From Planctomycetota bacterium (GTDB lineage Bacteria; Planctomycetota; B15-G4; JADJEK01): a stretch of DNA of 53,804 nucleotides. Each line of letters opens with the position of its first letter. The first letter of the stretch is position 1. Positions 2,788-39,326 of the stretch are shown one piece after another. Below the pieces are notes generated by a model. That model was not told the DNA's origin and searched no databases. It worked only from the letters and a program-made list of their open reading frames with translations. Location of the stretch: positions 1-53,804 of the forward strand of contig JBGAIQ010000040.1 in the NCBI GenBank assembly GCA_044225365.1. Direction: 5' to 3'. The translations under genes were made by a program, and so were the position numbers.

Positions 2788-2814
2788 GGGAACTCGCGGA
2801 AAAAGGGCGACAAT
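2788..2814 (+). promoter_or_regulatory. Bipartite promoter-like motif upstream of iscS
   Basis: GGGAAC-N13-GCGACAAT-N7-ATG, same layout as before the four ECF fusion genes. Confidence 0.55.
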
Positions 2815-7848: not shown

Positions 7849-8175
7849 ATGATCAAGTTGACCGAACGCGCTCAAAAAGAAGTCCGCGAGCTGATCGCCG
7901 GCCAGAACATGCCCGCCGGCACCTTCCTGCGCCTCGGCGTCGCCGGCGGCGGCTGCTCGGGGTTCACCTACAACCTCCGCTTCGACACGCAATTGAACGA
8001 GACCGATCAAACCGAGGTCCAGGGCGGCGTCACGGTCGTCTGCGACCCGAAGTCCTTCGTGTATCTCGAAGGCTCGGAAGTCGACTTCACCGACGGACTG
8101 AACGGGCGCGGTTTCGTCTTCCGCAACCCCAACGCATCGACGACCTGCGGCTGCGGAGAGTCGTTCGGGGTGTGA
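7849..8175 (+). CDS. iscA: Iron-sulfur cluster assembly accessory protein (HesB/IscA family)
   Basis: LRLGVAGGGCSGFTY and NPNASTTCGCGESF. Confidence 0.92.
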   Translation: MIKLTERAQKEVRELIAGQNMPAGTFLRLGVAGGGCSGFTYNLRFDTQLNETDQTEVQGGVTVVCDPKSFVYLEGSEVDFTDGLNGRGFVFRNPNASTTCGCGESFGV

Positions 8176-8241
8176 CGCCTCACGATTGGGGAAGGCGCGC
8201 GATCGATCCGCGCTCGTAGATTCGAACTTCTCGTGGAATCG

Positions 8242-8268
8242 GGAAACTCCGTCGCTCGCCGCGACAAT
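8242..8268 (+). promoter_or_regulatory. Bipartite promoter-like motif, ECF fusion 1
   Basis: GGAAAC-N13-GCGACAAT-N10-ATG. Confidence 0.65.
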
Positions 8269-8278
8269 TGTCGGTGCG

Positions 8279-11122
8279 ATGACCGACGATCTCACGCCCC
8301 TCTTCCTTCGCTTTCGCGACTGCGGCGACCCGAACGCGCTGGCGGACGTGTTCGATCGCGTCGCCCTGGATCTGCTCCGAATCGGCCGGCATCTGCTTCG
8401 CGACGAGGCCGCCGCCGAAGACGTCGTGCAGCAGACGTTCGTCACCGCGATCGAGCGCGCCAAGGCGTTCCGCGACGATGCAGCCCTGCGCCCCTGGCTC
8501 TGCGGGATCCTGTTCCGGCACGCACGCAACGAATGGCGCCGCCGGGCTCGACCTCCGGTGGCCGTCTCGCTCGACAACACGCCCTTCGACGCCGCGCGCC
8601 TTGCCGAAGCGAGCGAGATCCGCGCCGCGATCGAGTCCGCGGTGGCGACCCTCGGCGCGCCGTATCGCGAGGTCATCCAGGCGAACCTCCTCGCGGAGGC
8701 CACGGGCCCTGAGATCGCGGAACAGCTCGGGCGAACGCGCGGCCTCGTGCGATTACAGCTCCATCGCGGGTTGCGTTTCGTGCGAGGTCTCCTACCGCGC
8801 GGTCTCGTCGCGTGGGCGCCGATTTCCGCCCCCTCGCTGCGAGAACCACGTGGACTCACGGCGCTTCGAGACGCGTTGCTCTCGTCGGGCACGCGATCGA
8901 CCCTTGCTCCCTCGACTGCGGGAACCCTTGCGATGAGTGTGACGGGGAAGAAGTTCGTCGCCGCCTCCTTGGCCTTGATCCTCCTTCTCAGCGTCGTGGC
9001 GTTGTTCGAGACCCGGACGAGTTCCGGCGACGGCGCCCGGGCGGCCAGATCGCCCGTCCGGGAGATCGCGGCGAACCGCGACAATGCGAGCGCTCCGACG
9101 TCTCCGCTCTTCGATGCGCCCGTTGACCGCGAGGAGATCCCTGCGACGATGGCGCCGGCGACGATCGAAAGGACGATCGTGGGACGCGTCGTCGGCTCGG
9201 GACGATTTCCGGTCGCGAGCGCCGCGGTCGAAGCCCGCGTCGCTGGAGTGCCGATCGCGTCGGCGGTCACCGACCGAAAGGGAGTCTTTCTCGTCGAGTT
9301 GCCGATCACGGCACCGAACTCCGTGGTGCTGCACGTCTTCACGCCCGACGGCCGATGCGTTGCGAAACTTCGTACGCTTCCGCCCACGGGGGAGTGCGAC
9401 GCAGGCACGATCGTCCTCGAGGGCGGCGGGAGGTTGCGAGTGATGGTGACCGCCGAGGGAACCCCGGTCGGTGGTGTCGTCGTGGATCTCGATCGCCGTC
9501 CCGGCCTGCGCGTCGCGACGGGGCGCACCAATCCCGCGGGCGTCGTATCGTTCGAGCATCTGCCGAGCGGGACGATCGATCTCGTCGCCCGGGCGCAAGG
9601 GGGAGAAGCGTTCGGTCGCGCGGTGATCCCTGAAGAATCGGACGCTCTGCTCGCGATCGACCCGGGCCAGGATTACGAAGTGTCGGTCCGCGACGCCGAG
9701 ACGAAGCGGCCGATCCCCGATGCGATCGTCGGACTCTCGCGTGGGATCCACGGAAGCGGCGGTCTCGAATTCGACACCGGCGGTGACGACCGGCTCTTTC
9801 GAATCGACGGCGACTACCTCATGAACATCCCTGCGCCGGGAATGGAGACGCGGGCCGACGCAGCGGGGCGGGTCGTCTTTCGGTCCCTATCGAAAGCCGG
9901 AAACTATTCATGGATCGCGCGGGCCCCGGGTTTCGTTCCCGTCGGCGATGGACCGAAGGTCGACCCCTCGGTGAGGAGCTACACGATCGAACTGCGTCCT
10001 TCCTCGAGAAGGACCGTGCGATTCCCCGTCGAAGCGGGCGACTCGCCGATCCCCAGAGCGGCGACGCCGCTCGCTCTCTCGACGCTTCCCGGTCATACCC
10101 GCGGCCCGAGTGCCGAACGGAACACGCTTGGGATGATGGGGAACGGGGAAATCGTCGTCGAGGACGTCGAAGGCCCAGCCGTCCTCGAGGCGCGCACCCC
10201 AGAGGGCGGCGCCGCGATCCTCGAAGTCGAGGACGGATCGATCGAAGGCCGACCGACGCAATTCACGCGCCTGCGGAAGGTCAAAGTGCACGTGGTGGAC
10301 GCCGACGGGATTCCCCTGAAGAGCGCGTCGATCCAGGCTCGGTGCGTGAGACAACCTCTTGGTGCCCGGGTGCCGCTCGACCTTGCGGGTCGAGCGACGC
10401 TGGTCGGTCTCTCCCCCTTCGTCTCGACGCAGATCTACCTCTGCATGGAGACCGCCGATGGCAGAGTCGACGAGCGACGGATCGCCTCTCTCGAGCCGCG
10501 GACGGGCGATCGCGATCTCGAGTATTCCTTGCCGCGCACCTCGCGAGTTCGATTACGCCTTCATCGGGACGGGAAACTCGAACTTCCCTCGAGTTACGAC
10601 GTGAAGGCGATCGGTCGCGTGTGTCGCGTCATCGCGGAGGATCCCGAGAAAGGAGAACTGCTCGTCGAGTTCGACATCGAGGCGCGCGGAGCATCCGCAT
10701 CGGAAATCGAGGTTGAATACCCGCGCCCCGCAAACCCGGACTTGGTGCGAATCGATGTCGATGCCAGAGCGATCCGTGGCTCCGTTCATGCGGTGCCCGC
10801 GACCGGCGGCGAGGTACCGGTCGTCGACGTCGAACTGATTTCCGAGTTCGGAACGCTCGATGTCGTCGTCGACCGAGCGCGGGGAGCCCGGATCGGGATT
10901 CGTGTCGATCGATTCGACGCGGAGAAAGGCGAGTATGCGCCCTTCGAGCCACGAGATGGGTCAGGAAACAGGGACCCGAACGGTCCTGGAGATACCTTTC
11001 GTTTCGACTGCGTCCGCCCGGGACGCTACCGCGCCATGGATACGGTCTCGGGCGCCGTATCCGACGCGATGGAGATCACCGCCGGCATGACGAGTCGGGC
11101 GAAGCTCACGATTCCGAAGTGA
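8279..11122 (+). CDS. ECF sigma factor fused via one TM helix to carboxypeptidase-regulatory-like beta-sandwich repeats (paralog 1)
   Basis: Region 2 AEDVVQQTFVTA...LRPWLCGI, region 4 PEIAEQLGRTRGLVRLQLHRGL, TM KKFVAASLALILLLSVVALF, repeats of GRVV...PVASA.V...TD..G.F; start set at ATG 8279. Confidence 0.85.
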   Translation: MTDDLTPLFLRFRDCGDPNALADVFDRVALDLLRIGRHLLRDEAAAEDVVQQTFVTAIERAKAFRDDAALRPWLCGILFRHARNEWRRRARPPVAVSLDNTPFDAARLAEASEIRAAIESAVATLGAPYREVIQANLLAEATGPEIAEQLGRTRGLVRLQLHRGLRFVRGLLPRGLVAWAPISAPSLREPRGLTALRDALLSSGTRSTLAPSTAGTLAMSVTGKKFVAASLALILLLSVVALFETRTSSGDGARAARSPVREIAANRDNASAPTSPLFDAPVDREEIPATMAPATIERTIVGRVVGSGRFPVASAAVEARVAGVPIASAVTDRKGVFLVELPITAPNSVVLHVFTPDGRCVAKLRTLPPTGECDAGTIVLEGGGRLRVMVTAEGTPVGGVVVDLDRRPGLRVATGRTNPAGVVSFEHLPSGTIDLVARAQGGEAFGRAVIPEESDALLAIDPGQDYEVSVRDAETKRPIPDAIVGLSRGIHGSGGLEFDTGGDDRLFRIDGDYLMNIPAPGMETRADAAGRVVFRSLSKAGNYSWIARAPGFVPVGDGPKVDPSVRSYTIELRPSSRRTVRFPVEAGDSPIPRAATPLALSTLPGHTRGPSAERNTLGMMGNGEIVVEDVEGPAVLEARTPEGGAAILEVEDGSIEGRPTQFTRLRKVKVHVVDADGIPLKSASIQARCVRQPLGARVPLDLAGRATLVGLSPFVSTQIYLCMETADGRVDERRIASLEPRTGDRDLEYSLPRTSRVRLRLHRDGKLELPSSYDVKAIGRVCRVIAEDPEKGELLVEFDIEARGASASEIEVEYPRPANPDLVRIDVDARAIRGSVHAVPATGGEVPVVDVELISEFGTLDVVVDRARGARIGIRVDRFDAEKGEYAPFEPRDGSGNRDPNGPGDTFRFDCVRPGRYRAMDTVSGAVSDAMEITAGMTSRAKLTIPK

Positions 11123-11152
11123 GCGATCGATCTCGCTCTGCGAATGAAATCC

Positions 11153-11179
11153 GGCAACGCGGACTTCGCGAGCGACAAT
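11153..11179 (+). promoter_or_regulatory. Bipartite promoter-like motif, ECF fusion 2
   Basis: GGCAAC-N13-GCGACAAT-N7-GTG. Confidence 0.65.
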
Positions 11180-11186
11180 AAGGGGC

Positions 11187-14027
11187 GTGACGAACGACCC
11201 CCTCACGCGACGATTCGAGGACTTTCGCGATCACGGCGACGCCGCGGCACTCGCCGAGGTATTCGATTCGACCGCGACAGGATTGCTGCGCGTCGCGATG
11301 CACCTGCTGCGGGATCGGAACAGCGCCGAGGATCTCGTCCAGCAGACCTATCTGACGGCGATCGAGCGCGCCGCGACGTTTCGAGATTCTGCCGCGATAC
11401 GGCCGTGGCTGTTCGGCATCCTGCTTCGACACGCGCAGAACGAGCGGCGGCGGCGCAATCGATCGAGTTCACCCGTCGCGCTCGACGGCATCGAGGTCTC
11501 GGATGCGACCGTCCAACTCGCATTGGAGCGATTGGAGTTCGCGGAGACACGGCGTGCGGTCGAGGCGGCGCTCAGCAGCATCGAGTCGCCCTTTAGAGAA
11601 GTCGTCGCGGCAAGTCTCTTCGAGGATTCGACACCAGGCGAGATCGCTTCGAGTCTCCACCGCACACCGGCGCTCGTGCGATCCCAACTCTTTCGGGGTC
11701 TGAGATTCCTTCGCGGATTGCTGCCGCGTGGGTGGACCATCGTTGCGCCGAGTGGCCTCGGCGAGCTACGGCGTGCGGTTCTGGCGCATGCCGGACTCAC
11801 GGGCGCAGGCGCACGACTCGGGAAAGGATGGCTCGTGAACTCCGTGGGGAAGAAGCTCGCTTCCGTGGCCGTGATGGTGGTCACAGTCCTTTGTGCCGTC
11901 ATCGTGATCGAGGTTCGACGCAACGGAGTGAATTCGCACTCTGGGGACTCGAGCACGGCTCCGCCGGTCGTAGAACTCCGCGACGCGCCCGCGCTCACGG
12001 CCTCGATCGATTCCAATTCCATTCCGAATCGAACCGAGGTCGCCGCGACGAACTCGGACGTGATCGGACCGCGCTCACTCGTGGGACTCGTCTTGGGCGT
12101 GGGGCGATTCCCGGTCGCGAACGCCCGGGTAGAGGCTCGCGTCGAGGGCCGCGCGATCTCTGCGTCCCAGACGGACTCGACGGGGCGCTTCTCGGTCTTC
12201 CTCGCTCCCAGCGCGCTGTCTCACGTCGTGCTCTACGTCTCGTCCGAGGACGGTCGATGCACGGCGAAAAGCCGCAAGGCCGACCACGATGGCGAATGCG
12301 ATGCGGGAACGATCCTGCTCGATGCGGGCGGATCGCTCGCCGTTCGAGTCGAGGTCGCGGGCCAACCCGTCGCCGATGCGACCGTGATGCTCGATCGGCG
12401 CCCGTGGTTCCACATCGCAACGGAGTCCACCGACGTCACGGGGGTCGCGCGTTTCGAGCACGTCCCGAGCGGCATCTTCGATCTTCGAGCCTCTGGAGTC
12501 GGCGGCGAAGCCCGAGGGCGGGCGCTCGTCCCGGACGAGAACGCGGTCGAATTGACTCTGGAGCCCGGATTCGATGTCGACGTCTTCGTTGCCGACGCGA
12601 CGACCAAGGCGCCGATTCCAGCCGCGACCGTGACGCTGCAGCACCGAATCTCGGGTTGGGGACGACTCGAGACCGAATGGGGCGACGACGATCGGGTTTG
12701 GCGTACGGAAGGGTCCTACGAGTTCGTCAATTCGTCTCCACACGACACGTTTGCGGCGGACTCCGACGGGCACGTGCGCCTCTTCGGACTCGCGGCTCAA
12801 GGTTCGTATTCGGTGACCGCACGAGCGGACGGCTACGCGCCGCTCGAGCCCGGCGATTCGGGATCGCTCGATCGCGAGTCGAAGTCGAAACGGATCGAGT
12901 TGCGACGCTTGACGAAGCGATCCGTGCGTTTCGAGGTTCGTGCCGGCGAGGCGCCGATTCCCGTCGCTGGAACTCCGCTCCACCTCACGATCCGTTCGCG
13001 TTCGGCGTCGAGGGAGATCGACTTGCCCATGGGCGCGAACGAGATCGTCGTTCCCGACGTGGAAGGTGACGCAACGATCGACGCTCGAGCGGCGGATGGC
13101 CTCGTCGCTCACATGAGCGTCACCGAGGACGCGATCGAGGGTCCCGCGACGCGATTCGATCGCACGCGCACGGTTCGCGTTCACGTGCTCGACAGCGTGG
13201 GAGGTCCTCTCGATGGTGGTGTCGTCTTCTCCAACGACACGGGCAGTGGAAGCGAGGTGTCGGCCGTACTCGATTCGACGGGCCGAGCCGAACTGAGCGG
13301 GCTGATCGCAGGCCAGGTGAAGGTCAGCCTTCGCTTCTCGACGCCGACCTCCTCGAAGCAACCCGACGAGCGCGAGATCGGTCGCGTCGAGCTGTACCAG
13401 CACGACGAGGAACTGGAATACGTGATGCCAGTGACGGGGATCGCGCGCTTTCGCCTTCTCCACGAAGGGCAACCCCAGTTGCCGCTGAGTTATGAAGTGC
13501 GCTCGCCCGCGGGCATCCGGTGTCGCGTCCTGGACGAGTCTCCAGTGACAGGAATCGTTCGGGTCGCGTTCGACATCGCCGCGAAGGGAATCGGCAAGAA
13601 TCCCCCGGTGTACTTCGATTCGCTTCTTGGCGGCGATCCCGACTCGATCTTCGTCGATATCACGGGTCCAGGTTCACTCCTCGGCCAAACGCGAGTCGTG
13701 CCGGCGACGGGTGGTGAGGGTCCGCTGGTCGACGTCGAGATGATCAGCAGGCTCGCAACTCTCGATGTCGTCGTCGAACGCCCCAAGGGTAAGCCCGTGC
13801 GCATCCGTCTCGAACGATTCGACCCTGCCAAGGGCACCTTCGAATCCGCATCGAAGACCGAATCGTCGCCGGCCTGGCGACCGAATGGGCCGGGCGATAC
13901 TTTTCGGTTCTTCGAGTTGCGGCCGGGGAGGTATCGCGCGAGAGACGAGGCGTCCGGTGTCGTCTCCGAGAGCGTCGACGTTTCGCCGGGCGTGAAGAGT
14001 CGTGCGAAGCTCGTCCTGCCGCAGTGA
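11187..14027 (+). CDS. ECF sigma-TM-beta-sandwich repeat fusion (paralog 2)
   Basis: AEDLVQQTYLTAIERA, GEIASSLHRTPALVRSQLFRGL, TM KKLASVAVMVVTVLCAVIVI; collinear with paralog 1 to the C-terminal PNGPGDTFRF. Confidence 0.85.
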   Translation: MTNDPLTRRFEDFRDHGDAAALAEVFDSTATGLLRVAMHLLRDRNSAEDLVQQTYLTAIERAATFRDSAAIRPWLFGILLRHAQNERRRRNRSSSPVALDGIEVSDATVQLALERLEFAETRRAVEAALSSIESPFREVVAASLFEDSTPGEIASSLHRTPALVRSQLFRGLRFLRGLLPRGWTIVAPSGLGELRRAVLAHAGLTGAGARLGKGWLVNSVGKKLASVAVMVVTVLCAVIVIEVRRNGVNSHSGDSSTAPPVVELRDAPALTASIDSNSIPNRTEVAATNSDVIGPRSLVGLVLGVGRFPVANARVEARVEGRAISASQTDSTGRFSVFLAPSALSHVVLYVSSEDGRCTAKSRKADHDGECDAGTILLDAGGSLAVRVEVAGQPVADATVMLDRRPWFHIATESTDVTGVARFEHVPSGIFDLRASGVGGEARGRALVPDENAVELTLEPGFDVDVFVADATTKAPIPAATVTLQHRISGWGRLETEWGDDDRVWRTEGSYEFVNSSPHDTFAADSDGHVRLFGLAAQGSYSVTARADGYAPLEPGDSGSLDRESKSKRIELRRLTKRSVRFEVRAGEAPIPVAGTPLHLTIRSRSASREIDLPMGANEIVVPDVEGDATIDARAADGLVAHMSVTEDAIEGPATRFDRTRTVRVHVLDSVGGPLDGGVVFSNDTGSGSEVSAVLDSTGRAELSGLIAGQVKVSLRFSTPTSSKQPDEREIGRVELYQHDEELEYVMPVTGIARFRLLHEGQPQLPLSYEVRSPAGIRCRVLDESPVTGIVRVAFDIAAKGIGKNPPVYFDSLLGGDPDSIFVDITGPGSLLGQTRVVPATGGEGPLVDVEMISRLATLDVVVERPKGKPVRIRLERFDPAKGTFESASKTESSPAWRPNGPGDTFRFFELRPGRYRARDEASGVVSESVDVSPGVKSRAKLVLPQ

Positions 14028-14109
14028 CTCGCCGGTAGCCCGAGTGCCGCCCGACGGCGACTTCCCGATTCGACTCGCCGCGTTCTTCCACGAAGATCCT
14101 GGAAAATCC

Positions 14110-14136
14110 GGTCAGGCATCCCGCATCCGCGACAAT
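14110..14136 (+). promoter_or_regulatory. Bipartite promoter-like motif, ECF fusion 3
   Basis: GGTCAG-N13-GCGACAAT-N7-GTG; hexamer deviates but is preceded by AAATCC as in copy 2. Confidence 0.55.
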
Positions 14137-14143
14137 GCACGGT

Positions 14144-16963
14144 GTGACGCCCGATGAACTGACTCGCAGCTACATTCGCTTCCGCGATCGCGGCGATCCC
14201 GCGGCGCTCGCCCGCGTGTTCGACGCGACGGCGCCGGCGTTGCTCGCGGTCGCTCGCCATCTCCTCTCGGAAGCGAGCGCGGCCGAAGACCTCGTCCAGC
14301 AGACCTTCCTCACCGCCATCGAACGGGCTTCGGCGTTTCGGGACGGCGCGCCCGTTCGCCCGTGGCTCTTCGGGATCCTCGTGAGGCACGTGCACAATGA
14401 ACGAAGGCGGCGCGCTCGCTCACGCATGGAATTGGCGGGCGACGTCTCTGAAGTCCCTTCGATCGATGAAGGAGCTGCGATGGGCGTCCTCGCCGCGATC
14501 GAGTGCGCGGAGACCCGCGCCGAGATCGAGCGGGCGATCTCGGAGATCGCCTCCCCGTTCAGGGAAGTCGTCGCGGCGAGCGTGCTGGAGGGCGCGTCCG
14601 CGGGCGAGATCGCGACGCGACTCCAGCGGACGCCCGGTCTCGTGTATTCGCAACTGCATCGCGGTCTGCGATTCCTCCGCGGCCTCCTCGCGGTCGGGTT
14701 CGCGCCGATCGTGCCGCGGGAGATGGAACGAATGCGATCGCGCGTGCTCGATACCGCCATGCGCGCCAAGGCTCGGTCGGCCCCAGAGCAGGCGGCCGCC
14801 GCCGCTCGCCGCATGCATCCGTTTCTCATCCGCGCCGCGATCCTCGCGATCGGCGGCGGGCTTGGTGCAGGAGCGCTTCTCTTCGCTCTTCATCAGGGTC
14901 CCGAGATCCCGTCGATCGAGGAACTGCGTTTTCCGGCGGCTCGCGCCGTTGCTGCTGCCTCGGTCCCTGATCCCGTCGAAGCCGCGGTCGTTCGCGAGGA
15001 AGTTCAATCGCAATCGAGTGACGCCCGAATGACGATCGAGGGTCGAGTCGTCGGCTCCGGGCGATTCGCCGTGAGTGGAGCGGAGGTGGAGGCGCGGATG
15101 GCGGGAGTTCTCATCGCCCGCACGACTTCCAACGCGAGCGGCGGGTTCACGATTCGATTCGACGAGCCGTTGACCGGAGGTGTCGCCTTGATTGCGCGCA
15201 CGAACGACGGGCGATCGGGCTTGGCGTCGTGCTCGCGGACGGGTGTTCGTTCGTTCGAGGCGGTCATCCCGGTCGAACGAACGAAGGACCTGAAGGTCTC
15301 CGTGCTGCAGGACGGGGCCGCGGTCGAAGGCGCAGACGTCGATCTCCAATACGGCGCCCCGTTCTGGCAGACCGCCCTCGCGGCTACGACGCGCCGAGAT
15401 GGCGTCGCCCAGTTCGCATCGCCTCCACCCGGTCTCGTGTCCATTCGAGCCCGGCATCACGGAAGCTTCGGTCGGGTCTGCGCGGTACTCCCGGATGAGG
15501 ACTCGATCACGCTCGAGCTCCACCGTGGGGTCGACTTCGTGATGCAAGTGACGAACTCCGTGACGAAGGAACCGATCGCCGGCGCCGCGGTCGCCGTTCT
15601 GGAATCGGTTCCATCCCCGATCGCGAGCCCATTCGATTCGCGACCGAGGCTGATGCAGGAACTCGCGGTGCCGTTACCCGTGACCGGCATCGATGGACGA
15701 AACGCAGCCGCCGTGCTGACGGATGAGAAAGGCTTCGCGCGAGGAACGGCCCTGCGGTCGGAGGCAGATGCCGCCGTTCGTTTCTCGATCCGGGCGCCGG
15801 GATTCGAGCCGAGCGTCGCTACCTTCCCGATTCCGCCCGATCCGAGTGAGGCCGGGCATGTCGCGATGGAGATGTCGCCCGTCGCCGTCCGCCCCGTCCT
15901 CTTTCGAATCGTTTCCGGCGCGCTTCCGGCGCCACGAAACGGCACACGAGTGTGGGTCCATGAACGTGCCGACCTGGGCGCCGCCGACCTGGACTTGGTG
16001 AGGCGATTCGATCCGTTGAGCCTCACGATCGAGAACGGATGCCTGCTCATTCCGCGATGGGAAGGCGAGGGCGACTTCCGCGCAACAACGGACGACGGGG
16101 CCGTTGCCATGCTCCACGTCGATCGAAGTAGTGCGGTCGGGCGCGATGCAGCTTTCGATCGACTCGCGAACGCAACGCTGCGTCTCTTGGATTTCGAGTC
16201 GAAGGCTCTCGCGGGGCAACGCCTGAAGTTGCAGCAGGGATCACGAACGAACTGGACCGAGTTCGGGTCGGGTCTCACGAACGAACAGGGAATCGTCACG
16301 ATCGAAGACCTTCCCCGGGAGGAATTCGACGTGCAGTGGGAGGAGATCACTTCGATCGGAGCGGGCGTGATCGTGGGTGCCGTCGATCTGCGCGCGGGAA
16401 ACGCTTCGGCGGATCTCGTGATGCCGAGAACCGCGATCGTTCGGCTGCGGATCCGTACCGACGGAGTCTTCGAGCTCCCGTTGCAATACAACTTGGCGGC
16501 GTCCAGGACGCCGTGCCCCATCCTGAACGAGGATCCGCGACGCGGCGAGCTGAGCGTGGGTTTCGTCGTGGGGGCCGGCGAGGAGGGTCTTCCGATCCAC
16601 ATCGTCGTCGAGGGACGGGATCGGGTGCCGGCCGCGATCGAAGTCGTGCCGTTGCGCGATCGTGAAGCGCCGGAGGTCGTGATGGATCTCGCTCGCAGCG
16701 GCACACTCGATATCGAAGTGCGGCGGCCTGGGGGGCAGGTCGCGGGCGTTCGACTGGAGCGGATGCGGCCGGGGCCCGGCGACTCGGCGAAGCTCGAACC
16801 GACATCCGGCGCGGCTCGGACCGTGCCGAACGGGCCTCACGGGACGTTCCGTTTCGAGAATCTCGAAGCCGGAATCTATCGGGCGATCGACGAGCGGTCG
16901 CAGGCCGTTTCGGAAGCGGTCGAAGTGGGCGCGGGCACGATTGCGCGGGCGCGACTCGAGTAG
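14144..16963 (+). CDS. ECF sigma-TM-beta-sandwich repeat fusion (paralog 3)
   Basis: AEDLVQQTFLTAIERA, GEIATRLQRTPGLVYSQLHRGL, hydrophobic AAILAIGGGLGAGALLFAL, C-terminal PNGPHGTFRF; GTG 14144 aligns with the paralog starts. Confidence 0.85.
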   Translation: MTPDELTRSYIRFRDRGDPAALARVFDATAPALLAVARHLLSEASAAEDLVQQTFLTAIERASAFRDGAPVRPWLFGILVRHVHNERRRRARSRMELAGDVSEVPSIDEGAAMGVLAAIECAETRAEIERAISEIASPFREVVAASVLEGASAGEIATRLQRTPGLVYSQLHRGLRFLRGLLAVGFAPIVPREMERMRSRVLDTAMRAKARSAPEQAAAAARRMHPFLIRAAILAIGGGLGAGALLFALHQGPEIPSIEELRFPAARAVAAASVPDPVEAAVVREEVQSQSSDARMTIEGRVVGSGRFAVSGAEVEARMAGVLIARTTSNASGGFTIRFDEPLTGGVALIARTNDGRSGLASCSRTGVRSFEAVIPVERTKDLKVSVLQDGAAVEGADVDLQYGAPFWQTALAATTRRDGVAQFASPPPGLVSIRARHHGSFGRVCAVLPDEDSITLELHRGVDFVMQVTNSVTKEPIAGAAVAVLESVPSPIASPFDSRPRLMQELAVPLPVTGIDGRNAAAVLTDEKGFARGTALRSEADAAVRFSIRAPGFEPSVATFPIPPDPSEAGHVAMEMSPVAVRPVLFRIVSGALPAPRNGTRVWVHERADLGAADLDLVRRFDPLSLTIENGCLLIPRWEGEGDFRATTDDGAVAMLHVDRSSAVGRDAAFDRLANATLRLLDFESKALAGQRLKLQQGSRTNWTEFGSGLTNEQGIVTIEDLPREEFDVQWEEITSIGAGVIVGAVDLRAGNASADLVMPRTAIVRLRIRTDGVFELPLQYNLAASRTPCPILNEDPRRGELSVGFVVGAGEEGLPIHIVVEGRDRVPAAIEVVPLRDREAPEVVMDLARSGTLDIEVRRPGGQVAGVRLERMRPGPGDSAKLEPTSGAARTVPNGPHGTFRFENLEAGIYRAIDERSQAVSEAVEVGAGTIARARLE

Positions 16964-17051
16964 GCGAAAAGGGCGAATCGATCCGTAGAATGCGTCGCCG
17001 CACGATCGGGCGCGCCGTGCCGCTGTCGCGCGCCCTACGAAATGCGCGAGG

Positions 17052-17633
17052 ATGGGCCCTTCGATGAACGTGGAACTCTCACAGCTCTGGCTTCCGATCG
17101 TTTTGTCCGCCGTCTTCGTCTTCCTCGTCAGCTCCATCGTCCACATGGTGCTGCAGGTCCACAAGCACGATTACAAGCCGCTGCCGAACGAGGGCGGCGT
17201 CACGGACGCGCTGCGCAGCCTCGGCGTTGCGCCAGGGGCCTACGTATTCCCGGCGTGCACTTCGATGAAGGACCTCGGCACCGCGGAGATGCAGCAGAAG
17301 TTCGCGCAGGGTCCGGTGGGACACCTGGTGATCCGGCCGAAGGGCATGCCCTCGATGGGCAAGAGTCTGCTGCAGTGGTTCGTGTTCTGCATCGTCGTGT
17401 CGGTCTTCATCGCCTACCTCGGCACGCTCACGATTCCCGCAGGAACCGCCGCGATGCGAGTGTTCCGGATCACCGGGACGGTCGCGGTGCTCGCGTACGG
17501 AGTGACCGGCGTCATGGACTCGATCTGGAAGGGGCTGAGCTGGGGAACGGCGCTGAAGTTCATCGGCGACGGCATCGCCTACGGCCTTGCGACCGCCGCG
17601 ACGTTCGCCTGGCTGTGGCCGCACGCGGGCTGA
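17052..17633 (+). CDS. Hypothetical integral membrane protein
   Basis: About four hydrophobic segments (LWLPIVLSAVFVFLVSSIVHM etc.), strong codon bias; start may be 17064. Confidence 0.75.
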   Translation: MGPSMNVELSQLWLPIVLSAVFVFLVSSIVHMVLQVHKHDYKPLPNEGGVTDALRSLGVAPGAYVFPACTSMKDLGTAEMQQKFAQGPVGHLVIRPKGMPSMGKSLLQWFVFCIVVSVFIAYLGTLTIPAGTAAMRVFRITGTVAVLAYGVTGVMDSIWKGLSWGTALKFIGDGIAYGLATAATFAWLWPHAG

Positions 17634-17792
17634 GCGAAGGATCGCGGCGGCTCCCCCAACGGAATTCAAGAAAAGTCGGCGAATCCCTCCGCTCCGATCG
17701 CGGAAAGGCGTGGATCTCTTCGGACGAAGAGTTCGAAGGCGATTCCGATGCGGGTGGCGATCGATGGCGTCGACGACGGAGCGAACTGCGGC

Positions 17793-18299
17793 CTACAGCC
17801 GTGGTGCGCGCTCGCGCAGTTCGGTCCGCAACCACTTGCGGATCGCCTTGAACTGATCCTCGATCCGTTGCTCGGTGTCGCCAAGCACCTCTCCGATCTC
17901 GCGGCAGGTGTATCCGCCGAAGTACCGCATCTCGACGAGGCGCGCGAGGTGCGCGTCGAGGCCAGCGAGTTTGTCGAGCGCCGCGTGGACGTCGAGGACC
18001 TCCTCCGGGCTCGCGCCGGGGCCGGTCCATGCCGGTTCGACGGCGTCGAGATCCTGGCGTCCGACGCGCCCGCCGCGCTTCACCGCATTGCGTTGCTTTG
18101 CGATGTCGACGAGCGTGTTCCGGAGCGCGCGCGAGGCGTAGGCGAGGAGGTCGGAGCGCTCCTTGGGGAGGTCGTTCTTCCCCTTCAGCAGGTTGACGCA
18201 GGCTTCCTGGACGAGCGAACCGGGATCGATGCCGCCGAATCGTTTGAGTCGCCGCGCTTGCTTCTCGAGTTCCTTGACGACGCTGTCGCTCAACACCAC
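17793..18299 (-). CDS. ECF sigma factor of the kinase-associated type (TIGR02999-like)
   Basis: SLVQEA, ASRALRNTLVDIAKQRNAVKRGG, ALDKLAGLD...LVEMRYFGGYTCREIGEVLG; GTG 18299 follows GGGGAG. Confidence 0.85.
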   Translation of the reverse strand: MVLSDSVVKELEKQARRLKRFGGIDPGSLVQEACVNLLKGKNDLPKERSDLLAYASRALRNTLVDIAKQRNAVKRGGRVGRQDLDAVEPAWTGPGASPEEVLDVHAALDKLAGLDAHLARLVEMRYFGGYTCREIGEVLGDTEQRIEDQFKAIRKWLRTELRERAPRL

Positions 18300-18406
18300 G
18301 TGGACGACTCCCCGAGATTCGGAATCATGCGTACGATATCCGATTCCAGGAGCGAGAACAGCGAGCGACGAAGCGGTTCCTCGTGTTCGTCGCACGGAGG
18401 AGCGTC

Positions 18407-20629
18407 ATGACGAACAGCGGCCACGGCGGTGGGGAGGGGAGCGCCGGTCGAGACGATCCGATTTCACCGTCGGTTCAAGCGGCGCTCGACGAGTTCGTGC
18501 GACGACTCCTCACCGGTGAGCGACCTGATCCCAAGGAGTTCGCGGCGGGTTTCGATGCCCCGGACCGCGAGGAGATCGAACGCCGCGTCACCGCGTATCT
18601 CACGGATTGGAATGGAGTGTCGTCGCGCGATACGGTTCCGGCCGAAGGACTCTCCGCGACGGCGACGCAACGCTTCGGCGACTATCGGATCGTCGCCGAA
18701 CTCGGGCGCGGCGGAATGGGGGTCGTGTACCTCGCCTGGGACGAAGCATTGCAGCGCTCGGTGGCGCTCAAGATCCTGACGCGTGAACTCGCGCAGAATC
18801 CTCGGCGGCTCGCCCGCTTCGAGCGCGAGGCGACGGCGGCGGCGCGTCTCGAGCATCCCGGCATCGTGTCCGTCTACCGCGCGGGAGAGCAGGACGGCGA
18901 GCACTACATCGCGATGGAATACGTCGCCGGCAAGACGTTGAACGACTTGCTCAACGATGCGCGATACGGAGCGAGCCACCGCCCACAGAACGCCATCGAA
19001 CTCGATTCGAACGGGAAGCCCGAATCGCGACGGGTCGCCCGCATCGCTCTCGAGATCGCGGAGGCGCTTCACCACGCGCATTCGAACGGCGTCATCCATC
19101 GCGATGTGAAGCCGCAGAACGTTCTCGTCGACAACACCGGACGGATTCGACTCGCGGACTTCGGACTCGCGAAGGACACGACGGTCGACAGCATCTCCGT
19201 CGACGGGGAACTCGCAGGTTCGTACTTCTACATGAGTCCGGAACAGGCGTTGGCAGCGAGTTCCGAGATCGATGGACGCACGGACGTCTTCTCGCTCGGC
19301 GTCCTGCTCTACGAGATGCTGACGCTCGAGCGCCCGTTCACCGGCAAGACGCCTCAGGCGATCATGTATCAGATCTCGTTCCGCGAGCCGACGCCGATCG
19401 GCCGCTTCAACCGCCGCGCGGCGCGCGACCTCGTCGTCATTTGCGCGAAGGCGATGGAGAAGAAGCCGGCGGACCGATACGAATCCGCCGAGGCTATGGC
19501 GGACGATCTGCGTCGGTTCTTGGAAGATCGCCCGATCCTGGCGCGGCCGGCAGGAGTGGCGCGACGGCTATCGCGGTTCGTGCGGCACAATCATCGCGCG
19601 TTGTACGCCGCCGCGGCGGCGATGCTCGTGACGAGCGCGGCGATGGCCTACTGGTATCGCTCCGGACCGCCCCGGCCTCACCTCAGCGTTGCCGCGCCCA
19701 GCGGTGCGCGCGTGTCGATTCGAAGGATCGATCCGGAGACATTGATTCCCGGCCCGCTCACACCGCTCGGAGAAGCGCCCCTCCATGATGTCGCGGTCGA
19801 ACGCGGTTATTATCGGGTCGTGACCGAACTCGCGGGAAAGGGTTTCGCCGAGCAAGCGATATTGCTTTCGACCGATTCGCAAGAAGTCGAATTGAATCCC
19901 ATCCTACGAAACTCCGCGGAGATCGTCCGGGCGGGAATGGTATTGATTCCGGCTGGCCGCGCGATCGTGGGGCAGGAGGGCGCCACGGGATTCCTGAAGC
20001 GACACGAGGCGGAGTACAATGCGTTCTGGATCGACGCTTATGAAGTAACGAACGCCGAATATCGATCGTTCGTCAAGGCCACCGGACACCGTGAGCCCCG
20101 CCACTGGTCGCTGGGATATCGGCCCGAGTGGGACGATCTTCCCGTCTGTTGCGTCAATGCTCGTGACGCTCAGGAGTATGCCGCGTGGGCTGGCAAGCGG
20201 TTGCCCACGGTCGTCGAGTGGGAGCGGGCCGCGCGGGGACTGGAAGGGCGACTGCAGCTTCCCATTCCGAAGGACTTCAGCGACCCGGCATGTGCGACTT
20301 GGTTGCGCCGCCCGGCGAATCCTGAGAAGACCTTCGAAGAACGCGTTCGGACGTATTCGACCCTCGCTCTTTCCGTGCGCAGTTGCCCGGAATTGGCGAC
20401 CGAGGATGGTGTCTTCCACTTGTTCGGCAATGTTCAGGAGTGGACGGAGTCCCTGGACACCACGCTCGAGAATGGCGCTCTGCAGTGGCGCGCCCACGCA
20501 TATTACTTCAGGGGCGGATCTTTTTACCTTTCTCCGAATGAATGGACCCTCGCCGACGGTGGTACGTTCGAGTCGGAGAAGCCCCCAACCGATCTCGGGT
20601 TTCGCTGCGCGAAGAGCTTTGAACCGTGA
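18407..20629 (+). CDS. Ser/Thr protein kinase with TM helix and C-terminal FGE/SUMF1-like domain
   Basis: LGRGGMGVVY, VALK, HRDVKPQN, DFGLA, YMSPEQA; C-terminal YEVTNAEY, RLPTVVEWERAARG, GNVQEW, RGGSF, GFRC; GGAGGAG RBS. Confidence 0.92.
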   Translation: MTNSGHGGGEGSAGRDDPISPSVQAALDEFVRRLLTGERPDPKEFAAGFDAPDREEIERRVTAYLTDWNGVSSRDTVPAEGLSATATQRFGDYRIVAELGRGGMGVVYLAWDEALQRSVALKILTRELAQNPRRLARFEREATAAARLEHPGIVSVYRAGEQDGEHYIAMEYVAGKTLNDLLNDARYGASHRPQNAIELDSNGKPESRRVARIALEIAEALHHAHSNGVIHRDVKPQNVLVDNTGRIRLADFGLAKDTTVDSISVDGELAGSYFYMSPEQALAASSEIDGRTDVFSLGVLLYEMLTLERPFTGKTPQAIMYQISFREPTPIGRFNRRAARDLVVICAKAMEKKPADRYESAEAMADDLRRFLEDRPILARPAGVARRLSRFVRHNHRALYAAAAAMLVTSAAMAYWYRSGPPRPHLSVAAPSGARVSIRRIDPETLIPGPLTPLGEAPLHDVAVERGYYRVVTELAGKGFAEQAILLSTDSQEVELNPILRNSAEIVRAGMVLIPAGRAIVGQEGATGFLKRHEAEYNAFWIDAYEVTNAEYRSFVKATGHREPRHWSLGYRPEWDDLPVCCVNARDAQEYAAWAGKRLPTVVEWERAARGLEGRLQLPIPKDFSDPACATWLRRPANPEKTFEERVRTYSTLALSVRSCPELATEDGVFHLFGNVQEWTESLDTTLENGALQWRAHAYYFRGGSFYLSPNEWTLADGGTFESEKPPTDLGFRCAKSFEP

Positions 20630-20662
20630 GATCGTTTTCGTAATGAGTTACAGGAGTGACTC

Positions 20663-21277
20663 GTGAGTTTCACTAGAAGCACGAATCTGGGATATGAGTT
20701 TCCCGTTGGCTCGCCGTACTTCGAGATCGATGATATGCCGAAGAAAGCCGCGGTCGACAAGGACTTCATGGTGAAGATGGACGAGCTTTTTCCGCGCGTC
20801 GTCCGAATGCACTGGATGTTCGGCGTCATCGACAAGGAATATCAGAAGCGACAGGCCATCATCGATCTGATGAAAGAGCGATTGCGGGTTCTGGGGACTC
20901 TGACCGGGTTCGCTTTCGCGCTGACGGAGCCCGGATTCGTCTGTCGGTACATCATCATCGACGGCGAGCATCGATTGGTCTACACGGCCCCGTTCGCTTG
21001 GACGGACAAGAGCGGCATGAATGTCGTACTCAGAAGTTCGATCTTGGATCCGACGGGGAAGCCCTACGAGGCCACGCCGGTGATCAACGAGAGCTGGGAG
21101 CACGAGATCCCCGAGGACGTGTGTCGCACCAAGGACGGGCTTGCCTACTACCTGCACCTCAAGCGTGCGGAGGACGCAAAGAAATTCGGGATCCACGCCG
21201 GGACGTCTTCGCCCGGAGAATCCGAAGGCGTGGTGACTCCGCCCGAGGGAACTCCTCACGGAAGTCCGATGCTGTGA
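20663..21277 (+). CDS. Hypothetical protein
   Basis: 204-aa ORF with AGGAG RBS and protein-like composition directly after the kinase. Confidence 0.7.
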   Translation: MSFTRSTNLGYEFPVGSPYFEIDDMPKKAAVDKDFMVKMDELFPRVVRMHWMFGVIDKEYQKRQAIIDLMKERLRVLGTLTGFAFALTEPGFVCRYIIIDGEHRLVYTAPFAWTDKSGMNVVLRSSILDPTGKPYEATPVINESWEHEIPEDVCRTKDGLAYYLHLKRAEDAKKFGIHAGTSSPGESEGVVTPPEGTPHGSPML

Positions 21278-21300
21278 TTCAGACAGCGACGGATAAACCC

Positions 21301-21327
21301 TGAAACGATCCGCGCCGCGGCGACAAT
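21301..21327 (+). promoter_or_regulatory. Bipartite promoter-like motif, ECF fusion 4
   Basis: TGAAAC-N13-GCGACAAT-N7-GTG. Confidence 0.65.
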
Positions 21328-21334
21328 GAGCGTC

Positions 21335-24300
21335 GTGGATCACGACGACCTCACGCACTTGTTCCTTCGCTTCCGCGATCGCGCCGATTCCGACGCGCTC
21401 GCGGAAGTGTTCGATCGCGCGGCGCCCTCGTTGCTTCGTGTCGGCGCGCATCTCCTCGGCGATGCCATCGGGGCCGAGGACCTCGTCCAGCAGACGTTCA
21501 TCACCGCGATCGAGCGCGCGAAGACCTTTCGGCAGGACGCGCCGCTGCGGCCCTGGTTGTTCGGGATCCTGATCCGGCACGCTCGGAACGAGCGACGTCG
21601 GCGGGAGCGCGCTCGCCCGAGGTCCGCGCCGCCCGAGAACTCGCCGAGCGCATGCGACGACGCATCGAACGCCGAGCTTCGCCGCGAGATCGCATCCGCG
21701 CTCGACTCTCTCTCGGCGCCCTATCGCGAAGTCGTGACGGCGAGTCTGCTCGACGAGGCGAAGCCGCGGGAGATCGCGACGGGCCTGCATCGCGCTCCCG
21801 CGCTGGTGCGCCTGCAGTTGCATCGCGGAATGCAGTTCTTGCGCGATCTCTTGTCGCGCCGCGGCGCCCCCGCATGGATCGTCCTCGAGCCGACCCGAGG
21901 GGTGCGTGGGATCGCGTCGTTGCGACATGAAATCCTTCTGAACGCGCGTCACGCAGCATCGCCCGCAGCATGGAGTGCAAAGGTCGGCGCCGCGGGATCC
22001 GGACTATCTCTTGGGAGTTGGATCATGGGAAAGAAGGCGATCGTCGTGGGTAGCGCGTGCATCCTTGCGTTGTGCGCCGTGATCGCGGTGGAGGCACTGA
22101 GGTCGACGGCGGAGGCGAAGCCCATCGCGGTCGCCGCCATGCCCGTCGTCGCCACGCTAGCCCCGACGCCAGCTCCGGAGCCGGTCGTGGCGGCGCCCAT
22201 CGAGCGCACGATCGCGGTGGCGGATCCGCCGCGAGTCCTCGAGCCGCTCACCGACCAGGCATCGCGCGGAGATGGAGTGGTCGTCGGCCGTGTCGTGATC
22301 GGCGACTCCACCGAGGCCGTGGCCGATGCGCGAGTCGCGGCATGGGTGGGAATCGACACGGGGCGACCGACCTGCGAAGCGCTTACCGACTCCGAGGGTT
22401 CTTTCCGGCTCACGTCCGTCGACTTCCTCAGCACGGTCTTCCTGACGATCGATGCGGAGGGCTTCTCGACGCGCAGCGTCGGTCTCGACGAGGCCGCCCC
22501 GAATTCGACATCTCGCGATGGCGAGTTGAACCTCGGACTCCTTCGAATCGAGCGGGGTGAATCGGTCGAAGGGGTCGTTCGAGACTCGACCGGGGTTCCT
22601 GTTCGTGACGCGGAAGTGAGGATCGCCGATGCGTACGGTCCGGCTTCGACCTTCCTGCCGGCGGGAACACGACACGGCGCCGTCACGGACGCATCCGGTC
22701 GTTTCGAGATTCGCAACGTCGCTCCGACCAGGGAGAACAACCTCTGGAGGATCTACGCCGTCGCGAAGGGCGAGATCGGAGGCGTTCGGATTCGAGTGCC
22801 GCGGGGAATCGGGAGTGTGAAGGACTGCGAGATTCGCCTCTCGCCCGTTTCGTCCCTGAAGGTCCACGTCGCGAACGAGAATGGCGAGCCGATCGCTGGG
22901 GCCCAGGTGCAGGCCGAGCCGCGCTTCGAGCCGTGGATCGAGATGAGGTACTTGAATGGCAAGGGTCCGGAGCCGGTCCACGGGATGAAATTCGGCTCGC
23001 TCCCATCGATCTCCGGCCTGTTCACCGCAACGACCGATGCCCGCGGCAATGCCAGCCTTCCGCGATTGCCTAGCAGGCGGAACGATCTTTCCGGTGAGCA
23101 ACCCGCGCTCTACGACGTATTCGTTCGCGCCGAGGGTCGCCAGGACGGCGCTGCCGATGGAATTCCTCTCGAGGTGGGAAAAATCGGCGAGGCGGGAAAG
23201 GAGCGCGAAGTCACCATCGCTCTCGAGCCGCTCCAACTGCGGAGCATCGAGGGGACGATCACCGGATCCGACTCCCATCCTGTCGCCGATGCCACCGTCT
23301 ACTTGTCGCGCGTGGATGGTGGGAGGCGATGGCTTCGTTATCCGGACGCGAGGTCGGATGCATTGGGCCGCTTCCGATTCGATGGCATCGCCGCGCTGGG
23401 GGAGTTTCATGTAGGCACGCGGCCGATCGACTGTCTGCCGTTCAGTACGTCCGTCGAGATCTCCGCGAAGTCGCCGCTCACTCTGACGGTGGATCTTCGT
23501 GCACGGCGGTCGTACACGATACAAGGTCGACTCGTCGATCAGTTCGATCATGGCGTCCCCTACGCGATGCTCGAAGCCGACGATCCCGAAGCAAAGCCCG
23601 GCGTCTCGTCGACCATGACGAGAACGGGTCCGGACGGGAGCTTCGAACTATGGACGCCGCTGCCGGGGGAACAGACCATTCACGGAAGGCAGTTCGAATT
23701 TCCCGCGGGGCAATGGACCGACTCCGCGCCGAGTTGGACGGCGAAGGGCGGCGCGCGGAACGTGAAGCTGGTGGTACAGCGCGCAGCGAAGGGCGTGTGC
23801 GAGGTCACCGCGAACATCGTCGATGCGCTCGATGGTTCGAAGGTCGACGTGAAGAACGCATGGTTCGAGCCCGATCCTTCGGGCGATACCCGCGTTCAGG
23901 TTCGTCCAACGATCTCGATCGGTCGAGTCGTTGCCAACGAACTCGCGGCGGGCGCGTGGACGCTCCGTCTCGCGACGGCGGAGCATGCCCCGTTCGACTA
24001 CCGATTCACGATCGCTCCCGGGAGTCGAAGTGAACGATTCGATGTCGCCATCCCGCGGCCCGCGATCTTGCGGGTCCGTATTGCGCTGCCCGCCGGGAAG
24101 GAACGCGAGTGCTTCGTCGGTTCGAGCCGCGGGATCTGTCATGCGGATGGAGGCGAGGTGCGGGGTTTTCGAGTGAAGGCGGGGGAGACCACCTCGATGC
24201 TCGCCACTGCAGGGCCGGTCACGCTGACCGTCGAAGGCAGGCGCCTCCTCGCGGAGCCGCGTGTCGTCGAGGCGAAGGTGGGCGAGTCCTTCGAAGTCGT

Positions 24301-24610
24301 TCTCGACGCCACGGTCGGCGGGACCCTGCAGTCCGAAGGATTCAGCCAACTCGCGGCCGGCGTGGGAGCGTTCTACGCAGCTTCGGGAAATGGCGCGTAT
24401 CGGTTGTTGTGGACCAAGTCTCGCCAGGATGGCGACAAATACGAAATGGGTGGGACGGTGCCAGTCGGGGCGGGGAAATGGCGCTTCTGCTTCCTCGCGG
24501 GAGCGACGGATGCCGCGCCCGAGACGCTGCCCGTGTGGGCGGAAGGGGACTACAGCGTCGACATCGATCAGACGGCGAAGATCGCTCTTCCCAGCGCACC
24601 TCGTCGTTGA
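21335..24610 (+). CDS. ECF sigma-TM-beta-sandwich repeat fusion (paralog 4, divergent C-terminal region)
   Basis: AEDLVQQTFITAIERA, REIATGLHRAPALVRLQLHRGM, TM KKAIVVGSACILALCAVIAV, repeated G.V.D..G.PV..A.V...TDA.GRF. Confidence 0.85.
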   Translation: MDHDDLTHLFLRFRDRADSDALAEVFDRAAPSLLRVGAHLLGDAIGAEDLVQQTFITAIERAKTFRQDAPLRPWLFGILIRHARNERRRRERARPRSAPPENSPSACDDASNAELRREIASALDSLSAPYREVVTASLLDEAKPREIATGLHRAPALVRLQLHRGMQFLRDLLSRRGAPAWIVLEPTRGVRGIASLRHEILLNARHAASPAAWSAKVGAAGSGLSLGSWIMGKKAIVVGSACILALCAVIAVEALRSTAEAKPIAVAAMPVVATLAPTPAPEPVVAAPIERTIAVADPPRVLEPLTDQASRGDGVVVGRVVIGDSTEAVADARVAAWVGIDTGRPTCEALTDSEGSFRLTSVDFLSTVFLTIDAEGFSTRSVGLDEAAPNSTSRDGELNLGLLRIERGESVEGVVRDSTGVPVRDAEVRIADAYGPASTFLPAGTRHGAVTDASGRFEIRNVAPTRENNLWRIYAVAKGEIGGVRIRVPRGIGSVKDCEIRLSPVSSLKVHVANENGEPIAGAQVQAEPRFEPWIEMRYLNGKGPEPVHGMKFGSLPSISGLFTATTDARGNASLPRLPSRRNDLSGEQPALYDVFVRAEGRQDGAADGIPLEVGKIGEAGKEREVTIALEPLQLRSIEGTITGSDSHPVADATVYLSRVDGGRRWLRYPDARSDALGRFRFDGIAALGEFHVGTRPIDCLPFSTSVEISAKSPLTLTVDLRARRSYTIQGRLVDQFDHGVPYAMLEADDPEAKPGVSSTMTRTGPDGSFELWTPLPGEQTIHGRQFEFPAGQWTDSAPSWTAKGGARNVKLVVQRAAKGVCEVTANIVDALDGSKVDVKNAWFEPDPSGDTRVQVRPTISIGRVVANELAAGAWTLRLATAEHAPFDYRFTIAPGSRSERFDVAIPRPAILRVRIALPAGKERECFVGSSRGICHADGGEVRGFRVKAGETTSMLATAGPVTLTVEGRRLLAEPRVVEAKVGESFEVVLDATVGGTLQSEGFSQLAAGVGAFYAASGNGAYRLLWTKSRQDGDKYEMGGTVPVGAGKWRFCFLAGATDAAPETLPVWAEGDYSVDIDQTAKIALPSAPRR

Positions 24611-39238: not shown

Positions 39239-39326
39239 CGCGAGCCGACACCGCTCGGAACGGCCCGAATGGGCATTTCCAACGCTCCTGTGACCATCGA
39301 CCCGGATTCCGGGTTAGAATCCTCGC

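Follow-up and report, generated by a model that had tools for sequence, protein, structure and literature searches.

A candidate ECF-type promoter element conserved with predicted membrane-anchored sigma factor fusion genes in Planctomycetota

The DNA examined here is contig JBGAIQ010000040.1 (53,804 nucleotides, assembly GCA_044225365.1; hereafter the window) of a Planctomycetota bacterium, which carries four genes for large fusions of an extracytoplasmic function (ECF) sigma factor, and the subject of this paper is a short bipartite element that precedes each of them. The encoded proteins, 939-1091 amino acids (aa) long, combine N-terminal Sigma70_r2 and Sigma70_r4_2 domains with CarboxypepD_reg repeats in Pfam searches, with Sigma70_r2 matches in all four (E values of 1.5e-11 to 3.8e-10) and no match to sigma region 3 or region 1. 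With scores of 67 and 60.6 bits, above its cut-off of 42.9, the sigma70-ECF model TIGR02937 assigns the proteins to the ECF (group 4) sigma-70 factors; among the NCBIfam models only this superfamily model passed, and no subfamily model did so. Hydropathy analysis revealed a single strongly hydrophobic segment at about residues 225-253 of each protein, with KK ahead of it in copies 1, 2 and 4 but not in copy 3, and the alignment places a conserved R..L..LR..VL stretch ahead of this segment. In the predicted topology, a single membrane helix separates a cytoplasmic sigma domain from an extracytoplasmic CarboxypepD_reg part of about 700 aa.

Each of the four genes is preceded by a -35-like hexamer, a spacer of 13 nt and the -10-like octamer GCGACAAT, with 7 nt between the octamer and the start codon, or 10 nt in copy 1 (Table 1). 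This arrangement had been described in the initial annotation and its coordinates were confirmed by reading the sequence, as was the AATC tract (AACC in copy 4) that lies 1-2 nt upstream of each hexamer. The copy 2 motif begins 31 nt past the stop codon of gene 1. The automatic ATG starts at 14135 and 21326 had been regarded as part of the motif, and this view is strengthened by the orthologue of copy 4 in a relative (G003), which reads GGAAAC-N13-GCGACAAT-N7-GTG, lacks an ATG within the box and uses the corresponding GTG as its start, thereby supporting the GTG starts at 14144 and 21335. The alignment of the four proteins also runs from the proposed start codons.

Table 1. Sigma fusion genes and copies of the bipartite element in the window
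Feature	Position	Strand	Description	Basis
Sigma fusion gene 1	8279..11122	+	ATG 10 nt past octamer	Pfam; TIGR02937 67 bits (cut-off 42.9); hydropathy; N-terminal alignment
Sigma fusion gene 2	11187..14027	+	946 aa; GTG 7 nt past octamer	Pfam; alignment; hydropathy
Sigma fusion gene 3	14144..16963	+	939 aa; GTG 7 nt past octamer	Pfam; alignment; hydropathy
Sigma fusion gene 4	21335..24610	+	1091 aa; GTG 7 nt past octamer	Pfam; alignment; hydropathy; NCBIfam
Copy 1 motif	8234..8268	+	tggAATCg; -35-like GGAAAC 8242-8247; N13; -10-like GCGACAAT 8261-8268; 10 nt; ATG 8279	
Copy 2 motif	11145..11179	+	tgaAATCc; GGCAAC 11153-11158; N13; GCGACAAT 11172-11179; 7 nt; GTG 11187	
Copy 3 motif	14102..14136	+	gaaAATCc; GGTCAG 14110-14115; N13; GCGACAAT 14129-14136; 7 nt; GTG 14144	
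Copy 4 motif	21293..21327	+	ataAACCc; TGAAAC 21301-21306; N13; GCGACAAT 21320-21327; 7 nt; GTG 21335	
Fifth window copy	2788..2814	+	GGGAAC 2788-2793; N13; GCGACAAT 2807-2814; N7; ATG 2822	19.6 bits

The window contains seven occurrences of the octamer, where shuffled sequences average 2.56, and 4 of 100 shuffles reach seven; the count by itself is weak evidence and the real signal is the placement. When the four copies are compared pairwise, identity reaches 1.00 for the octamer, 0.61 for the hexamer and 0.60 for the AATC block; against 0.27 expected at random, the values are 0.28 for the spacer, 0.31 for the next 20 nt upstream and 0.40 for the 7 nt that follow the octamer (identity ranges: octamer 0.73-1.0, hexamer 0.61-0.68, spacer and flanks 0.26-0.40). 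The encoded proteins are 22-45% identical to one another and 28-45% identical to copy 1. Because the boxes are conserved while the spacer and flanks are close to random and the proteins have diverged, the boxes have been kept by selection and are not leftovers of duplication.

The genome assembly (G000; 6.53 Mb, 65.1% GC, 103 contigs) contains 109 Sigma70_r2 matches, 39 of them in open frames of at least 700 aa. Grouping by N-terminal sequence defined a family of 13 genes including the four in the window, and a protein search with the sigma domain of copy 4 returned exactly 13 matches here, compared with 2-5 per genome in 11 genomes of the same taxonomic family. The nine members outside the window lie on contigs C47 (four, in tandem), C76 (two, in tandem), C29, C82 and C99. 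Ten of the 13 genes are found on C23 (four), C47 (four) and C76 (two), mostly adjacent and on the same strand, with neighbours 62-116 nt apart where measured. Relatives in the genome collection are almost all metagenome-assembled genomes (MAGs) of Planctomycetota, with the addition of Engelhardtia mirabilis Pla133. The other 26 Sigma70_r2 matches in long open frames have a different N-terminus and lack the motif, and two of them are probably short sigma factors inside long frames; one example (C47:8598-8780, + strand) is divergent from a family gene.

The element, comprising the hexamer, N13, the octamer, 7-11 nt and a start codon, is present before all 13 paralogues. The octamer is GCGACAAT in seven of them and GTGACAAT, GCGGTAAG, GAGGTAAG, GCGCAAAG, CCGTCCAT or GCGTCAAC in the others, and the hexamer carries G at position 2 in 13/13, A at position 5 in 12/13 and C at position 6 in 12/13. 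The registers at the 13 paralogues were placed by eye and then checked independently with a profile derived from other genomes only. This profile was obtained by de novo expectation maximization (EM) on the 95 nt upstream of a coding anchor at 79 homologous loci; the anchor, LFxRFR, is a motif of the coding N-terminus on which the first EM run had converged. The resulting profile reads gat...tGTaACGct, followed by a spacer and a weaker -10 region in which the A at octamer position 7 is the best conserved base. When applied to the 110 nt upstream of the 13 genes of the present genome, its best match fell in the register placed by eye in every case, the four window copies among them, with scores of 6.7-24.2 bits and at least 13 bits in 9 of 13. 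The same threshold was reached by 0.31% of 3259 crude gene upstream regions, some of which belong to the family's own genes, and by 1 of the 26 other long sigma fusions. The proposal that the motif belongs to this sigma family is therefore well supported, since every paralogue carries it and the foreign-trained profile agrees at each.

Motif discovery upstream of homologous sigma fusions likewise bore out the expectation that the element would recur: it stands before Planctomycetota homologues from genomes and from metagenomes alike, followed by the start codon at a distance of 6-11 nt. A score of at least 10 bits was reached at 65 of the 79 homologous genome loci and at 37 of 51 metagenome loci, the latter being those of a separate metagenome set of 79 loci that had the N-terminal anchor of the family and enough upstream sequence. 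In the reverse direction, the G000 profile reached at least 12 bits in 7 of 80 foreign upstream regions, which no coding or reverse-strand control did. Orthologues from the same taxonomic family follow the pattern hexamer-N13-GCG[A/T]C[A/G]A[T/G]-N7-11-start. On the sequences compared, the putative -35 box (GAATCC-nGTAAC) is conserved across the phylum and the putative -10 box is clade-dependent, GCGACAAT being the version of this lineage. The octamer had initially been called invariant, which holds within this lineage; elsewhere the -10 box differs by clade.

The octamer could also have been a generic housekeeping -10 box present before many unrelated genes, and this was checked across the genome. 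GCGACAAT was found 135 times where 136 occurrences are expected from base composition, so the octamer is not generic, and very few other genes have ACAAT or GACAAT at 6-9 nt from their start. At 19 bits or above, the G000 profile gave nine matches in the real genome (seven of them training sites) versus 1-3 in five shuffles; at thresholds of 15 and 17 bits there was no genome-wide excess over shuffles, and a larger regulon was rejected on this ground. Several apparent matches before long open reading frames (ORFs) proved to be internal to genes, as in an AcrB-type gene, and a window match at 25221-25247 on the reverse strand (10.7 bits) was dismissed as it lies inside a 649-aa ORF. A scan for RAC-N13-GCGACAAT found 12 matches in this genome and 0-8 in 30 relatives, the pattern being frequent only here.

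Both of the non-training matches at or above 19 bits directly precede genes, one of them IscS-like (gap of 7 nt) and the other transglutaminase-like on C32 (gap of 17 nt), and a D-2-hydroxyacid dehydrogenase gene on C31 is preceded by GCGACAAT-N7-ATG with a shifted hexamer. The IscS-like gene, a class-V aminotransferase of the IscS/NifS type (2822-4009), follows the fifth window copy, a site that the initial annotation had missed; the copy 1 site scores 21.2 bits with the G000 profile. This fifth site is lineage-specific, none of 13 homologues in 11 related genomes scoring above 5.7 bits, and one IscS-like orthologue has TACACT-N7-ATG in place of the motif.

Of the 65 loci from other genomes with 10 bits or more, 54 have their first in-frame start 6-11 nt past the octamer position, and the gap is 7-11 nt in 32 of the 37 metagenome loci at that score. 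Such a gap leaves no room for a transcribed Shine-Dalgarno sequence, and a -10 box that ends so close to the start (7-11 nt) should place the first transcribed base at the start codon or no more than about 4 nt away from it. From this box geometry we infer that the sigma fusion mRNAs would be leaderless or nearly so. Genome-wide, TANNNT shows a peak exactly 6 nt before start codons (66 genes, followed by 32, 27 and 31 at gaps of 7-9 nt, on a background of about 10), and at gene starts in general there is no more than a weak purine bump between -12 and -7; leaderless starts from canonical -10 boxes therefore seem to be in use in this organism. An example of the TANNNT class in the window is TAGAAT-N6-GTG (39315-39329, GTG at about 39327).

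A tree of 92 sigma domains showed that the -35 and -10 variants are clade-specific, with box pairs such as TGCAGC with GGTCCA, TGTAGC with CTGGTAA, CGTCAC with CGACGA and CGTTGC with GCGACGA. In the recognition helix of sigma region 4, one residue (x in VRxQ, number 160 in copy 4) varies with the base found at position 4 of the hexamer. All 14 discovery-set rows with G or T there have Met, and 63 of the 64 rows with A or C have another residue. The rule was concordant at 16 of 19 loci from the same taxonomic family and at 31 of 31 metagenome loci. Contrasts between sister paralogues in this genome are of the same kind, with GGTGAC and Met in one C47 gene versus A and non-Met in three relatives, and TGTGAC with Met versus TGTAAC with Ile on C76. 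These observations are suggestive of contact between the encoded sigma factor and its own -35 box. A second candidate rule, linking His to hexamer position 5, was rejected as independent pairs gave it no support. The hexamer of copy 3, GGTCAG, is the only one of the 13 that ends in G, and the region 4 helix of copy 3 (VYSQLHR, about 155 codons from the GTG at 14144) has Tyr where the others keep the conserved Arg of VR; the two changes may constitute a compensatory pair.

It had been suggested that variation in the -35 box could insulate the paralogues from one another. For the window this is not supported: all four copies are non-Met with A or C at position 4, and the presence of nearly the same boxes before eight paralogues argues for cross-activation over insulation.

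Taken together, the best account of the element is an ECF-type promoter that belongs specifically to the membrane-anchored sigma fusions, is conserved with them and is positioned to give leaderless or nearly leaderless mRNAs. Its parts would be a -35 box nGTAAC preceded by GAATCC and a -10 box GCG[A/T]C[A/G]A[T/G], with exactly 13 nt between them. nGTAAC fits the AAC type of ECF -35 box and the core CG(A/T)C resembles the -10 sequence CGTC, the distance from AAC to G(A/T)C being 15 nt. The sigma domain of the family itself would read the element, giving positive autoregulation, and the almost identical boxes of 13 paralogues would allow cross-activation; the tethered sigma is presumably active only after release from the membrane, probably by proteolysis. 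Auto- and cross-regulation by the sigma family is in our judgement the most likely reading, and we hold it with moderate confidence.

Several points weigh against this reading. The usual spacing in ECF promoters is about 17 nt, compared with the 15 nt found here. Promoter and gene are inherited together, and clade-specific variants alone are no proof of self-recognition. The Met rule was noticed post hoc and has three exceptions among the 19 same-family loci, and the phylogeny-corrected tests are underpowered: four of four supported independent pairs in the discovery set point in the same direction (p = 0.125), and the validation rows give two supported pairs only (median p = 1). With the same -10 box and similar -35 boxes at eight paralogues, one of these or a different sigma factor could drive them all, and the same motif precedes the IscS-like housekeeping gene. 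GACAAT, the last six bases of the octamer, keeps the A and T of TANNNT at 7 nt from the start and could be used by the housekeeping sigma factor. A promoter that needs only its own product cannot start from zero expression. Finally, both the start site and the leaderless status are deduced from geometry.

Some of these points lead to the alternative that the ECF-type promoter is read by a different sigma factor, for example one of about 70 short ECFs acting as a master regulator, with the fusion genes as its targets. The genome offers candidates in its 109 Sigma70_r2 matches, the eight paralogues with one -10 box belong to two separate clades, the motif also stands before non-sigma genes, and tethered sigma factors would need a source of basal expression. 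We nevertheless consider this unlikely, as the motif follows the family across the phylum and is nearly absent elsewhere, both by the small fraction of crude genes reaching 13 bits and by the lack of a genome-wide excess over shuffles, and as the covariation of Met with G or T involves region 4 of the very sigma factor encoded downstream.

Less probable again, and to our mind distinctly doubtful, is that GACAAT acts as a weak housekeeping -10 box for leaderless transcripts in this lineage, the hexamer being an activator site or incidental. The agreement with TANNNT at its positions 2 and 6, the gap of 7 nt within the 6-9 nt at which the TANNNT class of the genome peaks, and the IscS-like gene, which has the same box here and TACACT at the corresponding place in one orthologue, are all compatible with such a role. 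The octamer is, however, not enriched genome-wide, related boxes are rare before other genes, and most of the -10 variants across the family (GGTAAG, GACGAG and GTCCAG) do not fit TANNNT. The hexamer and the exact 13-nt spacing are conserved, the hexamer is unlike TTGACA and the spacer between hexamer and GACAAT is 15 nt. A consensus scan found no sigma-70-type promoter before the four window genes, a scan (terminators and sigma-70) that was judged uninformative.

That the element, which does overlap the translation start region, serves as the operator of a DNA-binding regulator or acts at the RNA level instead of being a promoter is very improbable, given that its boxes are neither palindromic nor direct repeats, that the spacer has no conservation to support an RNA structure and that the box positions fit -35/-10 geometry relative to the start at more than 100 loci.

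Returning to regulation by the sigma family, a bolder model may be entertained as a speculation, namely that the 13 tethered sigma factors form a cross-activating network through a single class of promoter without a 5' untranslated region (UTR), that a code of Met or non-Met against G/T or A/C partly insulates subsets of the network, and that GACAAT doubles as a weak housekeeping -10 box that primes the feedback loop.

The genes around the array are noted here for completeness. A gene of the IscA/ErpA type for iron-sulfur cluster insertion (7849-8175) ends 66 nt before the copy 1 hexamer; together with the IscS-like gene at 2822, genes of iron-sulfur (Fe-S) assembly adjoin the sigma array. Between fusion genes 3 and 4 lies a gene for a Ser/Thr protein kinase fused to an FGE-sulfatase (SUMF1-like) domain (18383-20629), flanked by ORFs at 17042-17851 and 20663-21277 that have no Pfam matches.

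Leaderless promoters in which the -10 box lies 6-8 nt before the start codon are known from Actinobacteria and Deinococcus. The element described here shares with them the distance from -10 box to start and the absence of room for a Shine-Dalgarno sequence, and the genome also has a TANNNT-N6-start class; it differs in pairing an ECF-type -10 box with an ECF -35 box and in the GTG start of three of the four window genes. With 13 nt between the boxes, shorter than the usual ECF spacing, it also departs from the predicted motifs of the groups ECF120, ECF231 and ECF218.

For these three groups, the part of the published classification covered here gives predicted -35 boxes of the TGTAAC and GTAACG type (PMC7826278), the predicted autoregulatory motifs being TGTAACAAA / TCGTCAT for ECF120, TGTAACCTT for ECF231 and GTAACGC / CCAAGTA for subgroups of ECF218 (Casas-Pastor et al. 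2021, PMC7826278). Like those motifs, the present element is bipartite with a GTAAC-type -35 box, stands directly upstream of the sigma gene and is conserved among orthologues, and the reasoning by which autoregulation is deduced is the same (PMC7826278); it differs in belonging to another sigma family and phylum, in its extra GAATCC block upstream of the -35 box and in a -10 box that abuts the start codon and leaves no 5' UTR. In the portion of the Casas-Pastor supplement covered, the family was not recognised among the ECF groups (PMC7826278).

Among planctomycetal groups, ECF57 has a C-terminal extension with transmembrane helices, averaging about two, in the parts of the sources consulted (PMC7826278; PMC8999054). 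The family described here resembles it as a sigma factor of Planctomycetes with a membrane-spanning C-terminal extension, for which release from the membrane is the proposed route of activation (PMC8999054), and the gene context given for ECF57s3 mentions CarboxypepD_reg-like proteins, a domain that the present family carries as repeats (PMC7826278). ECF57 is defined there by a pair of completely conserved Cys residues, of which sigma-2 and sigma-4 contribute one each, and its promoter motifs are given as 'not conserved' (PMC7826278). In contrast, the alignment of the 13 sequences contains no invariant Cys in the sigma domain (Cys positions vary among copies, and copy 2 has none in residues 1-200), and the present family has one hydrophobic segment and a conserved promoter motif.

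The closest mechanistic precedent for a tethered sigma factor, by analogy and in the part of the source consulted, is provided by the sigma/anti-sigma hybrids IutY of Pseudomonas putida (ECF243) and SCO4117 of Streptomyces coelicolor (ECF52), which are activated by regulated proteolysis (PMC8999054). These hybrids likewise join an N-terminal ECF sigma factor, a membrane helix and an extracytoplasmic sensory part in one polypeptide (PMC8999054); in the window proteins, Pfam (E <= 0.001) recognised no anti-sigma, zinc-finger or FecR domain, and their extracytoplasmic part consists of CarboxypepD_reg repeats. The expansion of ECF factors with diverse extensions in planctomycetes is documented (PMC7671368, consulted in part). 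The literature searched held no description of the motif or of leaderless planctomycetal sigma genes, and the supplements, of which parts were seen, may hold one.

We regard the finding, an ECF-type autoregulatory promoter for an uncharacterised planctomycetal group, as sound and useful, of moderate novelty and not surprising. ECF factors with long C-terminal extensions are very numerous in Planctomycetota and almost none of them have been studied, and a defined 35-nt promoter of fixed geometry, together with a candidate residue-base specificity pair, would make this family testable and would allow regulon prediction in MAGs. Start-codon calls are corrected as well, since two automatic ATG starts fall inside the promoter, and planctomycetes would join the groups in which leaderless gene starts appear to be in regular use.

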